From a virus (taxonomy: Duplodnaviria > Heunggongvirae > Uroviricota > Caudoviricetes): DNA of 18,872 nucleotides. The stretch spans positions 1 through 18,872 of IMG/VR virus record IMGVR_UViG_2663763227_000001. One strand, 5' to 3'. The notes below the pieces were generated by a model. It saw only the letters and a list, made by a program, of their open reading frames with translations, searched no databases and was not told the DNA's origin. Made by a program: the position numbers and the translations under genes. Positions 3,719-10,061 of the stretch are shown here, piece by piece. Every line of letters begins with the position of its first letter. The stretch's first letter is position 1.

Positions 3719-3744
3719 CTTACTGGGGGTAAGACATGAAGATG
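3719..3744 (+). promoter_or_regulatory. S-gene translational control element: sdi-like hairpin over the SD plus dual-start motif ATG-AAG-ATG
   Basis: CTTAC (3719-3723) / TGGGG loop / GTAAG (3729-3733) immediately upstream of ATG 3736 and ATG 3742. This is the lambda S107/S105 antiholin/holin dual-start arrangement. Confidence 0.6.
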
Positions 3745-4059
3745 CCAGAAAAACATGACCTGTTAGCCGCCATTCTCGCGGCAAAGGAACAAGGCATCGG
3801 GGCAATCCTTGCGTTTGCAATGGCGTACCTTCGCGGCAGATATAATGGCGGTGCGTTTACAAAAACAGTAATCGACGCAACGATGTGCGCCATTATCGCC
3901 TGGTTCATTCGTGACCTTCTCGACTTCGCCGGACTAAGTAGCAATCTCGCTTATATAACGAGCGTGTTTATCGGCTACATCGGTACTGACTCGATTGGTT
4001 CGCTTATCAAACGCTTCGCTGCTAAAAAATCCGGAGTAGAAGATGGTGGAAATCAATAA
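3736..4059 (+). CDS. S: Holin S (lambda class I holin; S107 from ATG 3736, S105 from ATG 3742)
   Basis: 107-aa translation [45 protein letters not shown]... is nearly identical to lambda S as remembered. Confidence 0.95.
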
Positions 4060-4519
4060 TCAACGTAAGGCGTTCCTCGATATGCTGGCGTGGTCAGAGG
4101 GAACAGATAACGGACGACAGAAAACCAGAAATCACGGTTATGACGTCATTGTTGGCGGAGAGCTATTCACTGATTACTCCGATCACCCTCGCAAACTTGT
4201 CACGCTAAACCCCAAACTCAAATCAACAGCAGCCGGACGTTACCAGCTTCTTTCCCGTTGGTGGGATGCTTACCGTAAGCAGCTTGGCCTGAAAGACTTC
4301 TCTCCCAAAAGCCAGGACGCTGTTGCGCTGCAGCAGATTAAGGAGCGTGGCGCTTTACCGATGATTGATCGCGGTGATATTCGTCAGGCAATCGACCGTT
4401 GCAGCAATATCTGGGCTTCACTGCCGGGTGCTGGTTATGGTCAGTTCGAGCATAAGGCTGACAGCCTGATTGCAAAATTCAAAGAAGCTGGCGGAACGGT
4501 CAGAGAGATTGAGGTATGA
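4043..4519 (+). CDS. R: Endolysin R (lambda-type lytic transglycosylase)
   Basis: 158 aa; [51 protein letters not shown]... is nearly identical to lambda R. Start overlaps the end of S. Confidence 0.95.
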
Positions 4520-4974
4520 GCAGAGTAACCGCGATTATCTCCGCTCTGGCTATCTGCATCATCGTTTGCCTGTCATGGGCTGTTAATCATTACCGTGATA
4601 ACGCCACCGCCTACAAAGAGCAGCGCGATAACAAGGCCAGTGAACTGGAGAAGGCGAACGCCACCATCGCTGACATGCGGAAGCGTCAACGTGATGTAGC
4701 AGAACTCGACGCAAGATACACAAAGGAGCTTGCTGATGCTAACGCGACTATCGAAAGTCTCCGTGCTGATGTTTCTGCTGGGCGTAAGCGCCTGCAAGTC
4801 GCCGCCACCTGTGCAAAGTCAACGACCGGAGCCAGCGGCATGGGCGATGGAGAAAGCCCAGGACTTACAGCAGATGCTGAACTCAATTATTACCGTCTCC
4901 GAAGTGGAATCGACAAGATAACCGCGCAGGTTAACTACCTGCAGGAATACATCAGGACGCAATGCCTGAAATGA
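4516..4974 (+). CDS. Rz: Spanin inner-membrane subunit Rz (i-spanin)
   Basis: N-terminal TM segment [30 protein letters not shown] matches lambda Rz, followed by a coiled-coil periplasmic domain; the C-terminal half diverges from lambda. Start overlaps the R stop (ATGA). Confidence 0.9.
4736..4921 (+). CDS. Rz1: Spanin outer-membrane lipoprotein Rz1 (o-spanin), embedded in the +1 frame of Rz
   Basis: ORF lies wholly inside Rz in another frame. Signal peptide [20 protein letters not shown] with lipobox-like VSAC, then a proline-rich mature part [22 protein letters not shown] 7 nt upstream of ATG 4736; the ORF-track start at 4730 is TTG. Confidence 0.75.
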
Positions 4975-5009
4975 TCGGGCGATGAAAACCAAAAAAACAG
5001 GAGCAATAC

Positions 5010-5285
5010 ATGACTAAGTTTTATCACCGCATCTCAACTTTTCTCTCTGGTTGCTGGGTGTTTATCACGTCTATTTCGTTCGCCATCTTTAGTTTCGGTA
5101 GCACAGCGTGCTCGCTTAGTCGGGGTCTGTGGCGTGCTATTTCAGCACTAGCGCCGAAATTTTTACCTGAAAAGGCTGTTTGGCGAATTGTAGAGCGAAT
5201 GTGTAGTGAGAGCGTTCGCGAGAAGATTAACGTATTTGGACGTTATCCTCGAAATACAGGCGCATTGTGCAGTCCGTTACTGTAG
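5010..5285 (+). CDS. Hypothetical small membrane protein (91 aa)
   Basis: AGGAG 8 nt upstream of ATG 5010. One predicted hydrophobic segment (FLSGCWVFITSISFAIFSF). No recognised homolog; sits between the lysis cassette and packaging genes, a typical cargo position. Confidence 0.35.
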   Translation: MTKFYHRISTFLSGCWVFITSISFAIFSFGSTACSLSRGLWRAISALAPKFLPEKAVWRIVERMCSESVREKINVFGRYPRNTGALCSPLL

Positions 5286-5579
5286 TCATCACAAAGCCTA
5301 TCTACGGGTGGGCTTGATAATGAAACCGGAATTTATTCTGGGCAACCAGTTACGGCAGTACAGCGAAACAACCCAAGCCAGTAAGTGGGGAAATAACACT
5401 GGCAGCCACTGAAAGATGAACCTCCAGCCTTATGGCAAAAAAGATTCTTTGTGGTGGCGGACTGATGGAAAGACATCGGTTATTGCAGAGACCATTCAAT
5501 GAGTGGTCTCGACAATGGCTTATACCCTACACGGGATAACTTAACTGATATCCCTTTTAACGGATAAACGGAGCCAACA

Positions 5580-5822
5580 ATGGCAGAGATTATTCCCATG
5601 ACTGAAGAACAGAAATTCCAGTTAGAGATTTACAAACTGGTCATGAACCAGAACGCAGCCGCAGAAGAAGCATTTCAATTCATTGGCACTGACGAGCTGA
5701 AGCTTGAGCTATTCAAAATTCACTTCCAGTCAGGCGGCGCTAATTCAGATATCACGATCCGCACACTTGAAGCGGTGCGTAAATCTAAGGAAGCGTTAGA
5801 CCTGTTCACTACCGGAACATGA
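5580..5822 (+). CDS. Hypothetical protein (80 aa)
   Basis: SD ACGGAG 8 nt upstream of ATG 5580, preceded by a hairpin plus T-tract at 5533-5558. Acidic, helical-looking product; no recognised family. Confidence 0.5.
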   Translation: MAEIIPMTEEQKFQLEIYKLVMNQNAAAEEAFQFIGTDELKLELFKIHFQSGGANSDITIRTLEAVRKSKEALDLFTTGT

Positions 5823-5823
5823 T

Positions 5824-6003
5824 GTGAGCCGCGTAATCAATTTGGGTAAGGAGAAGAAATTCCCAATTACTCAAGAGCTATACGAGCGGCTTGAAAGCGT
5901 CATCCATGATTACGATGGTGAAATAAGTTTATGCGAGGCGATTGGCACACTCGAATTGCTGAAGCAGTCACTGATTGAAGGCGCGAAAGAGTCCTCAACC
6001 TGA
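5824..6003 (+). CDS. Hypothetical small protein (59 aa; GTG start uncertain)
   Basis: Open frame from GTG 5824 (just after the previous stop) to TGA 6001-6003, ending 23 nt before terS. No strong SD for the GTG. Below the ORF-track cutoff. Confidence 0.25.
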   Translation: MSRVINLGKEKKFPITQELYERLESVIHDYDGEISLCEAIGTLELLKQSLIEGAKESST

Positions 6004-6026
6004 AATGACAATTAAGTGAGATAAAT

Positions 6027-6449
6027 ATGGCGACTGAACCAAAAGCTGGTCGCCCCTCTGATTATATGCCGGAGGTGGCTGACGATATCTGCTCGTTGCT
6101 TTCTTCTGGCGAAAGTTTGCTGAAAGTATGTAAGCGTCCTGGTATGCCGGATAAGTCCACTGTTTTCCGCTGGTTGGCAAAGCATGAGGATTTTCGCGAC
6201 AAGTACGCGAAGGCAACTGAGGCGCGAGCTGATTCTATTTTCGAAGAGATATTCGAAATTGCTGACACTGCGATTCCAGATGCTGCTGAGGTGGCAAAGG
6301 CAAGACTTCGCGTTGATACCCGCAAATGGGCGCTGGCCCGAATGAATCCCCGTAAGTATGGCGACAAGGTAACTAACGAGCTTGTCGGCAAAGACGGCGG
6401 CGCAATCCAGATTGAAACATCACCGATGAGCACTCTATTCGTAAAATGA
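6027..6449 (+). CDS. terS: Terminase small subunit (Sf6 gp1-like TerS, 140 aa)
   Basis: MATEPKAGRPSDYMPEVADDICSLLSSGESLLKVCKRPGMPDKSTVFRWL... matches the Sf6-type small terminase from memory (same length, N-terminal HTH-like DNA-binding region). Directly upstream of terL. Confidence 0.9.
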   Translation: MATEPKAGRPSDYMPEVADDICSLLSSGESLLKVCKRPGMPDKSTVFRWLAKHEDFRDKYAKATEARADSIFEEIFEIADTAIPDAAEVAKARLRVDTRKWALARMNPRKYGDKVTNELVGKDGGAIQIETSPMSTLFVK

Positions 6450-7861
6450 CCTCGATTAATCCTATCTTTGAACCGTTCATTGAGGCGCATCGCTACAAAG
6501 TTGCCAAAGGCGGTCGAGGTAGCGGTAAATCATGGGCAATTGCGAGGCTGCTTGTTGAAGCGGCGCGTCGGCAGCCAGTGCGTATTCTCTGCGCTCGTGA
6601 ACTGCAAAACAGTATCAGCGATTCGGTAATCCGGTTGCTTGAAGACACCATAGAGCGTGAAGGGTATACGGCTGAGTTTGAAATTCAGCGTTCTATGATT
6701 CGTCATCTCGGAACGAATGCTGAATTCATGTTCTACGGCATAAAAAACAACCCGACGAAGATTAAATCGCTCGAAGGCATTGATATCTGCTGGGTTGAAG
6801 AAGCGGAAGCGGTAACGAAGGAATCGTGGGATATCCTGATTCCAACCATCCGTAAGCCGTTCTCTGAAATATGGGTAAGTTTCAACCCGAAAAACATCCT
6901 CGACGATACCTATCAGCGATTCGTCGTAAATCCTCCCGATGATATTTGTCTGCTGACGGTGAACTACACCGACAATCCGCACTTTCCTGAAGTTCTCCGT
7001 CTGGAGATGGAAGAGTGTAAACGCAGAAATCCGACACTGTATCGTCACATCTGGCTTGGTGAGCCAGTAAGCGCAAGTGATATGGCAATCATCAAACGTG
7101 AATGGCTTGAAGCTGCTACCGATGCGCACAAGAAACTCGGATGGAAAGCGAAAGGCGCTGTTGTCTCTGCGCATGACCCGTCAGATACAGGGCCAGATGC
7201 TAAAGGTTACGCATCGCGTCACGGTTCGGTGGTTAAGCGCATTGCCGAAGGTCTGCTGATGGACATCAACGATGGTGCTGACTGGGCTACTTCGCTGGCG
7301 ATTGAAGACGGCGCTGACCATTACCTGTGGGATGGTGATGGTGTTGGTGCCGGGCTACGCAGACAGACAACGGAAGCGTTCTCCGGCAAGAAAATCACCG
7401 CTACGATGTTCAAGGGCAGCGAATCGCCATTTGATGAAGATGCACCATATCAGGCCGGAGCATGGGCTGATGAAGTCGTGCAGGGCGACAACGTTCGCAC
7501 TATTGGCGATGTATTCCGCAATAAGCGAGCGCAATTCTATTACGCGCTGGCTGACAGGCTGTATCTGACATATCGGGCGGTTGTCCACGGTGAGTATGCA
7601 GACCCCGACGACATGCTGAGTTTCGACAAAGAAGCGATAGGCGAGAAGATGCTGGAGAAGCTGTTTGCAGAACTGACGCAGATTCAGCGCAAATTCAATA
7701 ACAACGGGAAGCTGGAGCTAATGACTAAGGTCGAAATGAAGCAGAAGCTAGGTATTCCATCTCCTAACCTGGCTGATGCGTTGATGATGTGTATGCATTG
7801 CCCTGAGTCGGCTGCGCAACCCGACTATTCCAGTTACTCAATTCCTTGTGGTGTAGGTTGA
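6446..7861 (+). CDS. terL: Terminase large subunit (ATPase/nuclease; Sf6 gp2 / P22 gp2-like)
   Basis: 471 aa; Walker A KGGRGSGKS near the N-terminus and an acidic nuclease-like C-terminal domain. Start overlaps the terS stop (ATGA). Length and synteny match P22/Sf6 TerL. Confidence 0.95.
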   Translation: MTSINPIFEPFIEAHRYKVAKGGRGSGKSWAIARLLVEAARRQPVRILCARELQNSISDSVIRLLEDTIEREGYTAEFEIQRSMIRHLGTNAEFMFYGIKNNPTKIKSLEGIDICWVEEAEAVTKESWDILIPTIRKPFSEIWVSFNPKNILDDTYQRFVVNPPDDICLLTVNYTDNPHFPEVLRLEMEECKRRNPTLYRHIWLGEPVSASDMAIIKREWLEAATDAHKKLGWKAKGAVVSAHDPSDTGPDAKGYASRHGSVVKRIAEGLLMDINDGADWATSLAIEDGADHYLWDGDGVGAGLRRQTTEAFSGKKITATMFKGSESPFDEDAPYQAGAWADEVVQGDNVRTIGDVFRNKRAQFYYALADRLYLTYRAVVHGEYADPDDMLSFDKEAIGEKMLEKLFAELTQIQRKFNNNGKLELMTKVEMKQKLGIPSPNLADALMMCMHCPESAAQPDYSSYSIPCGVG

Positions 7862-7862
7862 T

Positions 7863-10061
7863 ATGGCAGAAAAAAAGATGACTGACTGGCATCGCAAGGT
7901 GCTGTGCAACTTTGATAATGCCTGGTCAGCAACGCAGGATATGCGTGAGCAGATTATTGAGGCTCAACGTTTCGTCCGGGTGTCCGGCGCACAGTGGGAA
8001 GGCAGCACAAACGCTGGTTACTCATTTGATGAAGGTAGGTTTGAGCATTACCCGCGCTTTGAACTAAATAAGATTGCCCGTGAATGTGATCGCATCATTG
8101 GCGAGTATCGACAGAATCGCATCAGCGTTAAATTCAGGCCGAAGGACGATAAGGCATCGGAAGCGTTAGCCGAAAAGATGAACGGCAAATTCCGCGCTGA
8201 CTATCAGGAAACATCCGGTGGCGAAGCGTGTGATAACGCATTTGATGATGCTGTAACGGGCGGATTCGGTTGTTTCCGCATGTGTGCCGATTACGAAGAT
8301 GAAATGGATCCGAGTAACGAGCAACGCCGTATAAGCCTTCTCCCTGTTTACGACCCAGCGACATGCGTCTTCTTTGATCAGGACAGCAAGCAATATGACC
8401 GCTCTGATGCTATGTGGGCTATGGAAATGTTCTCCATGACGCCTAAAGCGTTCGAGGCTGAATACCCTGATTCCATCGCGGCAAGCCTTTCTCGTGATGA
8501 CACTGGCACTCAATATGACTGGTCAACGCCCGATGCCATCTATGTTGGACGCTACTACGAAGTTCGCATAGAGAAGGTGAAGCTCACGGCGTGGCGCAAC
8601 CCTGTTAGCGGAGAAACGGCAATCTATGATGAAGAGCAAATCAAAGATGTTGTCGACGAGCTAACCGATGGCGCATTCGAACTGATTGGTGAGCGAACGG
8701 TGAAGAAACGCCGCGTTTATTGCGGCCTTCTGTCTGGCGCTGAATGGCTGGAAGAACCGAAGCGTATTCCGGGCGAACATATTCCTCTCATCCCGGTATA
8801 TGGGCGTCGTTCATTTGTTGATAATCAGGAGCGAATCGAAGGCCACGCAGCAAAAGCGATGGATGCACAGCGTCTTGAGAACCTGATGGTTTCCATGATT
8901 GCAGATAACGCCACTCAGGCTGGCGGTGATGGTATTCCTGTAGTTGATGTTGACATGATTCCTGGTCCTCTCGCCACTCATTGGGCGGAGCGCAACAAAA
9001 AGCGCCCGGCGTTCCTGCCGATGGTCAGTCTGAAAAACAAAAACGGAGATATTACTGCGCAGGCTCAGGTCAGCAGTTATACACCTCCAACACAAATGCC
9101 TCCTGCTCTTGCCGGGCTATTACAGTACACCGGAACGGCTATTCAGCAAATTACAGGTGCGTCGCAGCTTGAGAACATGCCGAGCAACGTCGCTACCGAT
9201 ACCGTTGATAGCATCTTTAACAGGATGGACACGCAGTCATATATCTACATGGACAACATGGCTAAATCCATGCGTCGCGCTGGCGTTGTGTGGCTTTCTA
9301 TGGCGCGTGAGGTCTATGGCAGCGATACGCCAATGCGCATCGTTAATGAGGACGGCAGCGATGACGTGGCGCTGATGACTGGTGAAGTGGTTGACCGTCA
9401 GACAGGGCAGGTTATCGCGCTTAACGACCTTTCGCAGGGTAACTATGAAGTGACTGTCGATGTTGGTCAGTCGTTCGCTACTCGCCGTGATGCAACGGTT
9501 AAGTCGTTACTTTCCATGCTGGCACTTATCCCGCCTGGAACGCCGAAACACGACCTTGTGTCGTCTCTTATTCTCGACAATATGGACGGCGAAGGGATGG
9601 ACGACCTTAAAGAATACAACCGCAATCAGTTGCTTCTGTCTGGCGTTATCAAGCCGAAAACGCCAGAAGAACAGCAAATGGTTGAGCAGGCGAAACAACA
9701 ACAGGCCAGTCAGCCAGATCCGGCTATGGTTGCTGCGCAAGGTCAGCTTCTTGCTGGTCAGGCTGAATTGCAGAAAGCGCAGAACGAACAGGCAGCCATT
9801 CAGGTTAAAGCATTCCAGGCACAGACTGATGCTCATGTTGCAGCGGCAAATGTTGTGAAAATCCTCGCATCTGCCGATAGCCAGCAGAAATCTGATATCC
9901 GCGAGGCTCTGAAACTGCTCGGACAGTTCCAGCAACAGCAAGGAGACAATGCCCGTGCTGATGCAGAGCTTGTCCTGAAAAGTCAGGCGCAGGGACATGC
10001 ACAACGCATGGACATCAGCAGCATCCTGCAAAAATCAACTCAGCAACAACCACAGCAGTAA
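7863..10061 (+). CDS. Portal protein (P22 gp1-like, with C-terminal Gln-rich helical barrel)
   Basis: 732 aa; segments GRYYEV, GEHIPLIPVYG, KTPEEQQMVEQAKQQQ...DPAMVAAQGQLLAGQAELQKAQN and NARADAELVLKS...QRMDISSILQ align with P22 portal gp1 as remembered, including the long C-terminal barrel helix. Confidence 0.95.
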   Translation: MAEKKMTDWHRKVLCNFDNAWSATQDMREQIIEAQRFVRVSGAQWEGSTNAGYSFDEGRFEHYPRFELNKIARECDRIIGEYRQNRISVKFRPKDDKASEALAEKMNGKFRADYQETSGGEACDNAFDDAVTGGFGCFRMCADYEDEMDPSNEQRRISLLPVYDPATCVFFDQDSKQYDRSDAMWAMEMFSMTPKAFEAEYPDSIAASLSRDDTGTQYDWSTPDAIYVGRYYEVRIEKVKLTAWRNPVSGETAIYDEEQIKDVVDELTDGAFELIGERTVKKRRVYCGLLSGAEWLEEPKRIPGEHIPLIPVYGRRSFVDNQERIEGHAAKAMDAQRLENLMVSMIADNATQAGGDGIPVVDVDMIPGPLATHWAERNKKRPAFLPMVSLKNKNGDITAQAQVSSYTPPTQMPPALAGLLQYTGTAIQQITGASQLENMPSNVATDTVDSIFNRMDTQSYIYMDNMAKSMRRAGVVWLSMAREVYGSDTPMRIVNEDGSDDVALMTGEVVDRQTGQVIALNDLSQGNYEVTVDVGQSFATRRDATVKSLLSMLALIPPGTPKHDLVSSLILDNMDGEGMDDLKEYNRNQLLLSGVIKPKTPEEQQMVEQAKQQQASQPDPAMVAAQGQLLAGQAELQKAQNEQAAIQVKAFQAQTDAHVAAANVVKILASADSQQKSDIREALKLLGQFQQQQGDNARADAELVLKSQAQGHAQRMDISSILQKSTQQQPQQ

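Follow-up and report, generated by a model that had tools for sequence, protein, structure and literature searches.

A repeated hairpin with a covarying stem at the 3' ends of interchangeable small genes between the lysis and terminase genes of a P22-like prophage

What fills the interval between the lysis genes and the small terminase gene (terS) in phages related to P22, and is it here that undescribed functions should be sought? The question is raised by positions 5010 to 6003 of IMG/VR virus record IMGVR_UViG_2663763227_000001, a stretch of 18,872 nucleotides (nt), here called the window, which is the late region of a P22-like (Lederbergvirus, HK620/Sf6-type) prophage. All coordinates are positions in this window unless a locus label (L001 etc.) is given. 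A preliminary description of the interval, made from the letters alone, had listed three open reading frames (ORFs) of no recognisable family and proposed them as cargo genes of undescribed function. We confirm three ORFs between Rz and terS, at 5010–5285, 5580–5822 and 5824–6003, but they are not new: the 80 amino acid (aa) product belongs to Pfam family DUF2560, all three match PHROGs of unknown function, and counterparts are annotated in P22, HK620, Sf6 and HK140. Hence, these are already catalogued, function-unknown genes of P22-like phages. The order along the interval is orf91 with a hairpin, H1, then a noncoding spacer ending in an orphan hairpin, H2, then the DUF2560 gene with orf59c, and finally terS. 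The best explanation of the whole, for which we see somewhat better than an even chance, is that the late operon has an accessory zone here, with the hairpin acting both as an RNA element between cistrons and as a swap joint, and with proteins that serve as accessory factors of lytic growth.

The two hairpins had been overlooked before, and both are much stronger than the one that had been reported. H1 (5286–5323, plus strand; cAUCACA-AAGCCUA-ucuacggg-UGGGCUU-GAUAAUG) begins 1–2 nt past the orf91 stop codon. Its folding free energy (dG) is -15.3 kcal/mol (z-score -4.35), and a covariance model matches 5282–5327 with 54.4 bits (E=1.6e-12). H2 (5480–5518, plus strand; uUAUUGCA-GAGACCA-uucaaugag-UGGUCUC-GACAAUGg) is called an orphan as it has no ORF in front of it. 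It folds with -19.5 kcal/mol (z-score -6.9) and is matched by the model at 5476–5522 (63.1 bits, E=7e-15). The consensus of this family is about 40 nt long and consists of cAUUACA, a variable stem of 7 base pairs (bp), a loop closed by UUC...GAG, the complementary stem strand and GAUAAUG. The flanks can pair as well, as a lower stem of 5 bp (CAUUA/UAAUG) across a small internal loop.

At least 29 distinct stems occur among related phages, with compensatory changes. For 32 variants RNAalifold yields an upper stem of 10 bp, seven core pairs of which are never broken; compensatory changes are seen at eight of the 10 upper-stem pairs and at nine of all 14 predicted pairs. In a 16-pair structure 97.9% of the cells pair and the covariation score reaches 0.47, compared with 0.23 in shuffles and 0.06–0.14 in slid controls, with the reservation that the copies in this alignment were gathered by a finder demanding pairing of the 7-bp core, so that the core part of the statistic is circular. 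The strongest independent support comes from a scan with the flanks only and from pairs outside the core. Two of these latter pairs covary too, 10–41 (AU exchanged with GC) and 21–30. The flank-only scan of IMG/VR (CATTACA N22-30 GATAATG) returned 123 matches, 44 of them with 7/7 pairing, where 0.09% would be expected at random; the remaining matches centre on the random value of 2–3 pairs.

Imperfect pairs in the stems tell on which strand the structure matters. Single non-Watson-Crick pairs among the 29 distinct stems are G·U in 13 cases and A·C in 2 (binomial p ~0.007, relatedness ignored), and the plus strand of the element folds better than the minus strand. This bias together with the better plus-strand fold argues that the structure is selected on the plus strand. 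As judged from sequence, the late mRNA is the simplest candidate for the selected single strand. In 102 of 146 cases the ORF in front ends with its stop codon 1 nt before CATTACA, and a lysis gene upstream and/or terL downstream of the element was found in 37 of 44 independent loci. The covariance model, a further check independent of the finder, detects two copies in the complete HK620 genome and two in the window, all of them in the lysis-to-terminase interval; between Q and cos of phage lambda the element is missing. Many prophages of E. coli, Salmonella, Shigella, Klebsiella, Enterobacter, Citrobacter and Serratia bear the element.

H1 and H2 run into GAUAAUG and lack a U-tract, which sets them apart from intrinsic terminators. 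Conservation of structure on the strand that is transcribed, in a place between cistrons (covariation, G·U to A·C of 13:2, 1 nt past stop codons) is, on the other hand, what characterises RNase III sites and stabilisers of mRNA. An intercistronic RNA element is the most economical reading of the hairpin. Three small promoterless cistrons would be transcribed from the Q-dependent late promoter in lytic growth. By analogy to T7, the hairpin would serve between cistrons as a processing or stability element, either as a barrier to 3'-exonucleases or as an RNase III-type site, and would decide what becomes of the mRNA of each accessory cistron, insulating the cistrons from one another. The intercistronic RNase III sites and 3' stabiliser stem-loops of T7 are likewise repeated, possess an internal loop, stand just past stop codons within a long polycistronic transcript of the phage and are selected on the mRNA strand. 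Unlike them, the element described here is confined to one accessory region instead of punctuating the whole transcript. It has no sequence similarity to the T7 sites, and with about 15–16 bp in total its helix is shorter than that of classical RNase III substrates; cleavage is putative.

The repeated hairpin and the cassette architecture that it marks appear to be undescribed. Rfam gave no match in the window at gathering thresholds, and a permissive search of 4950–6050 produced chance-level hits only (E>3). No feature is annotated at the hairpins in the HK620, Sf6 and P22 records, and we found no description of the hairpin in the literature.

How variable is the surrounding interval? The 1,056 bases around it have matches in 208 phage records and partial matches in 2,568 of 5,426 complete E. 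coli genomes. Only 33 genomes keep the entire arrangement; therefore, the interval is mosaic. The 294-bp spacer between orf91 and DUF2560 (5286–5579), noncoding and with two copies of the hairpin, is 90–98% identical in >200 phages, including HK97 and P22. Relatives carry insertions at precise points of this spacer. At ~5336, HK620 and Sf6 hold an extra 57–61 bp. At 5477–5501, just 5' of H2, Sf6 gene 66 (Gp49 family), DUF551-type ORFs, small ORFs or a trypsin-like protease are found in relatives, some of the inserts bring a terminator along, and behind every one stands a hairpin variant of its own. At ~5538 (spacer position ~253), P22 carries pid. In one relative (L018) everything between H1 and the 3' flank of H2 is deleted and the ends are joined exactly at GATAATG. 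Before H1-type hairpins, other phages have a Tad2-like anti-Thoeris gene, Rha or KilA-N/HkbL instead of orf91; the Tad2-like protein (PF11195, E=7e-22; L103 1719–2198) takes the exact orf91 position in 4 of 80 DUF2560-anchored IMG/VR loci. A Serratia prophage (L167 3371–3652) encodes an Acb2_Tad1_hairpin protein (PF24729) within the lysis-to-terminase interval, and in Klebsiella-type phages DUF2560 itself lies between two hairpins. We conclude that ORF-plus-hairpin units are interchangeable in this interval, which forms an accessory-cistron zone within the late operon. The genes just listed, from pid and Gp49/gene 66 to the protease, bear out the proposal that the stretch from the lysis cassette to terS is a hotspot for cargo. 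The idea that this is a position for anti-defence genes holds for the neighbouring or allelic cassettes of relatives, which match Tad2-like or Acb2_Tad1 families, and not for the three products themselves, which match none. The protease at the H2 hotspot (L164 1105–2421; 246 aa, trypsin-like serine protease with a GGNSGGP motif and its own terminator) is in itself unusual cargo for a late operon.

Being conserved at the ends of cassettes, the hairpin may double as a joint for cassette swapping by recombination. As anti-defence and accessory genes occupy the same junctions in relatives, the three proteins would most likely be dispensable lytic-cycle accessory factors acting on the host, with counter-defence as a candidate activity.

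An element at cassette ends could also work as DNA. The alternative that survives best, although we regard it as unlikely, is that the hairpins are not RNA elements but folded single-stranded recombination sites or 'boundary sequences', similar to the attC sites of integrons or to repetitive extragenic palindromic (REP) sequences. Cassette junctions do coincide with the element, and the deletion in L018 has its joint exactly in it, between H1 and the 3' flank of H2. Furthermore, conserved flanks enclose variable stems and a single base is bulged, much as in attC sites, the units of ORF plus 3' hairpin are co-oriented, and short boundary sequences have been considered in the literature (PMC3029335). 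However, no dedicated recombinase was seen in or near the interval of the loci examined, and homologous recombination in the conserved spacer on either side suffices for the exchanges. The prevalence of G·U over A·C and the position 1 nt past stop codons fit an mRNA element better. Moreover, with ~40 nt the element is shorter than attC, and the REP signature GTAG is absent in most copies.

Integron cassettes resemble the units described here: their small ORFs lack promoters and share one orientation, behind each stands an imperfect hairpin in which the inverted outer boxes are conserved, the stem varies and a base is bulged, and many alternative cassettes can occupy one site. They differ in that attC is 57–141 nt long and that its R/L box consensus is absent here, where flanking homology explains the exchange; an IntI-type integrase or attI was not found in the lysis-to-terS interval of any locus examined. 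REP sequences and bacterial interspersed mosaic elements (BIME) are also imperfect palindromes of ~35–40 nt, orientation-specific and placed at operon 3' ends or between cistrons, where they stabilise mRNA. Their sequence is a different one, whereas the present element is phage-borne, restricted to one region, without a RAYT transposase and without a general 5' GTAG. A REP-like GTAG signature was indeed considered and rejected, as all three kinds of stop codon precede the hairpin at 0–4 nt. The 'boundary sequences' of lambdoid phages (the linker idea of Susskind and Botstein; 'bsq' in HK620/Sf6) share with the hairpins that they are short and conserved at the joints of mosaic modules. In contrast to H1 and H2, the annotated bsq7 lies inside Rz, and boundary sequences are defined by sequence identity, whereas our element shows covariation that preserves structure.

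A bolder proposal is that the CAUUACA...GAUAAUG stem-loop might be the signature of a dedicated cassette system of enterobacterial temperate phages. A factor of the phage or the host would recognise it as a structured site, in folded single-stranded DNA or in RNA, and small accessory genes between the lysis and packaging modules, the Tad2-like gene among them, would thereby be captured, exchanged or licensed post-transcriptionally. We consider this doubtful.

The RNA-element reading, with lytic accessory proteins, leads to the question whether the three genes behave accordingly. orf91 (5010–5285, plus strand, 91 aa, ATG start) belongs to the HK140 gp68 family (PHROG 34701), which it matches over its full length (1–91/91, E=1.1e-54), and is 96.7% identical to HK140 gp68 itself. 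It starts 35 nt past Rz with AGGAG 8 nt upstream of the start codon. The entropy by codon position over codons 56–91 is 0.18/0.06/0.74 (25 distinct DNA variants), and the length stays at 90–91 aa down to 53% identity. Variation dominated by the third position and a maintained length make it a real gene, even though the Prokaryotic Genome Annotation Pipeline (PGAP) leaves it unannotated in E. coli genomes. Homologues from E. coli, Enterobacter and Citrobacter form 51 clusters of 84–93 aa, to which a single fragment of 53 aa is added. A profile search over 1.84 billion representatives retrieved 15 small relatives (53–93 aa) and no informative fusions, and a scan of genome contigs one dubious locus only. 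The protein is basic (isoelectric point, pI, 10.1) with one hydrophobic stretch at residues 11–29, to which distant relatives add a second hydrophobic segment. Its C-terminal motif, W.IVERMCSE.VRE.IN.FGR.PRNTGALCSPLL, is strongly conserved. The AlphaFold2 model has helices at 2–51 and 53–72 and a disordered tail, at a low confidence (mean predicted local distance difference test, pLDDT, 64). The conserved motif in the part modelled as disordered is probably a docking peptide; orf91 would then be membrane-associated and present this motif to a partner.

orf91 was found in only 3 distinct isolated phages (4 records). In every case it comes directly behind the spanin genes, whatever lysis cassette is present, and in the manner of a moron its place can be taken by a Tad2-like gene, Rha or KilA-N/HkbL, or stay empty. 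It is cargo of sporadic occurrence. This constant neighbourhood could alternatively mean that orf91 is no cargo but an accessory protein of lysis that regulates the holin or the spanins, a role to which its small size, its basic character, its one or two hydrophobic segments and the strong ribosome-binding site so close behind Rz would be well suited. We think this quite improbable. orf91 follows at least four unrelated types of lysis cassette (holin_2, holin_3, holin_8; lysozyme, GH19, GH108; Rz or DUF2570), which speaks against a specific lysis partner. Most phages with the same lysis genes have no orf91, the genes that replace it at the same spot are those named above, and it matches no lysis family.

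The second gene, DUF2560 (5580–5822, plus strand, 80 aa, ATG start; P22 orf80, HK620 hkbM, Sf6 gene 67), matches PF10834 with 143.8 bits (cutoff 25; E=1.8e-42) over profile positions 1–72 of 72. GGAG is located 7 nt upstream of its start. Variable sites are distributed over the codon positions as 32/16/55. The third, orf59c (5824–6003, plus strand, 59 aa, GTG start; HK620 hkbN, Sf6 gene 68), matches PHROG 3546 over 1–59/59 (E=4.4e-43), follows DUF2560 as in P22 and HK620 and has variable sites of 9/7/17; its homologues fall into 64 clusters, the aligned members being 64–98% identical. Ribosome-binding sites had been ascribed to all three ORFs, which is right for the 91-aa and 80-aa ORFs, while the 59-aa ORF is preceded by a weak GGA only. 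Its GTG lies 1 nt past the TGA of DUF2560, which suggests translational coupling. The 80-aa product had correctly been called acidic (pI 4.7), and that of orf59c is acidic likewise (pI 4.8). AlphaFold2 predicts an all-helical DUF2560 with four helices, again at low confidence (pLDDT 56). The two gene products would form a coupled pair of small acidic helical proteins. Both families are restricted to Enterobacterales. The pairs orf80/orf59c of P22, hkbM/hkbN of HK620 and 67/68 of Sf6 share with the window 93–98% identity, the gene order, the 1-nt stop-start junction and the location upstream of terS; the P22 locus differs in its terS type, which is P22 gp3 there and the Sf6 type in the window.

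The substitution patterns show all three ORFs conserved as coding sequence across related phages, and clear homology to packaging or lysis accessory proteins, which the preliminary description had named as a finding that would speak against cargo, was not detected for any of the three products.

DUF2560 is present in most enterobacterial P22-like phages and, unlike a moron, is not a matter of presence or absence; therefore, it is no sporadic cargo. orf59c, found in 37 of 115 loci, does show such a presence/absence pattern and is an optional partner cassette between DUF2560 and terS. The wide occurrence of DUF2560, its location immediately before terS, or with one ORF in between, in 115 loci, and its lysis-to-terminase place, held in Klebsiella and E. 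coli siphophages even at 37% identity, may suggest that DUF2560, alone or together with orf59c, is no cargo but assists the small terminase in packaging and owes its place to this function. This, too, we judge to be rather unlikely. Copies of DUF2560 that are >95% identical precede three unrelated types of terS (P22 gp3, Sf6 gp1 and a 146-aa type), and the ORF that follows DUF2560 varies: besides orf59c, terS follows directly in ~41/115 loci, and unrelated ORFs of 46–157 aa elsewhere. Both facts argue against a specific partnership with terS. A P22 prophage with delta(orf25-orf80)::kan gives viable phage (PMC11016777); orf80 is dispensable in P22, as the mutant grows and lysogenises normally. 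In Klebsiella-type phages other genes part DUF2560 from terS, and the two hairpins flank it like a cassette, while phages of the HK97 type retain just a DUF2560 fragment of 28 codons.

In these latter cos phages the spacer with both hairpins is followed by only the first 28 DUF2560 codons, fused to the stretch that precedes the HNH endonuclease gene (L003 3107–3244 in HK140; L007, HK97 38957–39040), which places a recombination joint inside DUF2560. The slot between DUF2560 and terS is a second variable site (L154, L169, L168), which holds, besides orf59c, a 129-aa protein with an HExxH motif, and elsewhere 134- or 157-aa proteins with immunoglobulin (Ig)-like or fibre-like repeats, proteins of 95/96 aa or a lysine-rich peptide of 46 aa. 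ST64T orf-118 and its counterpart in phage SE1 (L008 1646–2002) encode a 118-aa protein, the C-terminal 80 residues of which are 43% identical to DUF2560 and the annotated start of which is an ATG homologous to window position 5432. DUF2560 in ST64T/SE1 may be N-terminally extended, or the start may be miscalled.

Are the genes of the interval expressed from a repressed prophage, as lysogenic-conversion genes would be? Between 4800 and 6200 neither a sigma-70 promoter was predicted nor a plus-strand terminator-like site called. In a BTP1 lysogen Orf80 reaches 5–40 transcripts per million (TPM) and Orf59c 3.7–44, which is the level of Rz and rha, whereas pid reaches 41–1110 (supplement of PMC7067206). 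Levels like those of lytic genes and the missing promoter indicate that these are late-operon genes and not conversion genes expressed by the prophage. The pid moron of P22 sits in the lysis-to-orf80 interval (PMC3573128). Its locus is comparable in the interval as such and in the insertion into the same conserved spacer, but pid is transcribed divergently, comes with its own promoter and Rho-independent terminator, and is active in carrier or lysogenic cells; in the window pid is absent, and the ORFs share one orientation and lack promoters. Thus, while the slot does hold a genuine moron expressed in the prophage or carrier state in P22 and BTP1, and orf91, of sporadic occurrence, resembles many exclusion proteins in its hydrophobic segment, it is very improbable that the three ORFs are conversion or superinfection-exclusion morons expressed from the repressed prophage, given that none has an own promoter or an own terminator (H1 and H2 being without U-tract), that all are oriented with the late operon and packed tightly behind Rz, and that the BTP1 transcript levels resemble those of lytic genes, not pid. 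The preliminary description was right on location and wrong on novelty and lysogenic expression.

Several points weigh against an RNA element with lytic accessory proteins as its cargo, and the circularity of the core statistic is one of them. The stems are related by descent and are no independent observations. The highly conserved flanks CATTACA/GATAATG would suit a recognition site at the DNA level too. As for the proteins, searches of Pfam, NCBIfam and PADLOC matched the three to no anti-defence family (Tad1, Tad2, Acb1, Acb2 and others), and Pfam, PHROGs and other profile searches to no lysis or packaging family. Foldseek comparisons of the orf91 and DUF2560 models with BFVD and PDB gave E>5 matches only. 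To call the three proteins host-directed accessory factors would be an argument from neighbourhood only, and the near-fixed place of DUF2560 close to terS could mean a packaging-linked role that is hidden under laboratory conditions. In addition, sequence and profile searches of PDB with the three proteins returned nothing significant, and no functional study of DUF2560/orf80, orf59c or hkbM/N was found in the literature. As the models are of low confidence and the fold matches have E>5, no inference is drawn from fold.

The spacer deserves a closer look for its own sake. The conserved part between H1 and H2 (5324–5479) is noncoding, and mini-ORFs on both strands were rejected as genes: 30 aa (5320–5412) and 35 aa (5432–5539) on the plus strand, 47, 49 and 39 aa on the minus strand. 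They show no third-position excess and far more nonsynonymous than synonymous changes, and in relatives starts are lost and premature stops gained. The 35-aa ORF (5432–5539) overlaps P22 orf25 (L009 1830–1907), the AUG of which sits in the loop of an H2-type hairpin. Since the overlapping ORF lacks a coding signature and loses its start or gains stops, and since the AUG has this position in the loop, P22 orf25 is, like the other spacer mini-ORFs, probably not a gene. The stretch 5352–5538 was also considered as a coding remnant of rha and rejected, because the P22 match begins exactly at the rha stop codon.

A hairpin with T-tract had been reported at 5533–5558. It exists, in the form of a terminator-like GGGAUA-10 nt-UAUCCC followed by UUUUAA (5533–5560, stem-loop 5533–5554, plus strand), but it is weak, with a 6-bp stem including 3 G-C pairs, a 10-nt loop, 4 U and a dG of -8.3 kcal/mol (z = -3.0). 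The terminator scan made no call at 5533–5554; the hairpin is conserved in relatives, and no compensatory changes were seen. A mini-ORF of 9 codons, MAYTLHGIT (5515–5544), takes its AUG from the 3' flank of H2 (GACAAUGG) and ends in the loop of this weak hairpin. The layout resembles a leader peptide with attenuator, and the stretch is almost invariant among relatives.

Upstream of the interval the window contains a lambda-type holin (3736–4059), the endolysin (4043–4519) and Rz with embedded Rz1 (4516–4974; PF03245), and downstream an Sf6-type terS (6027–6449; PF20901), the large terminase (6446–7861) and the portal gene (7863–10061). The G+C content is 0.44–0.47 over 5000–6050 and 0.49–0.55 in the flanking Rz and terminase genes. 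The orthologue of the Sf6-type terS (window 6027–6449; L001 4054–4476) is misnamed 'ubiquitin carboxyl-hydrolase' in NZ_CP137737, and the ORF at the terS position of phage Dewey (L010 2338–2826) is labelled 'peptidase HslV family protein'; its 489 nt are like P22 gene 3, as compared by length and position only.

The three ORFs are thus ordinary, that is, known, dispensable and function-unknown, and the useful result is the architecture around them. For annotation it follows that orf91 is a real gene missed by PGAP and that P22 orf25 and the spacer mini-ORFs are probably not genes. Covariation supports a hairpin that marks interchangeable accessory cistrons at their 3' ends, with Tad2-like cargo directly at the marks and an Acb2/Tad1-like gene in the same interval, and this hairpin and cassette architecture is worth an experimental test. 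Should the proposal of a dedicated cassette system be true, the element would flag undiscovered anti-defence genes, with orf91, DUF2560 and orf59c as prime candidates. If the element is functional, it would provide a handle of sequence and structure for mining counter-defence and accessory genes of phages, a testable case of intercistronic RNA control in the late operons of lambdoid phages, and a concrete mechanism for mosaic exchange at the joint between lysis and terminase genes.

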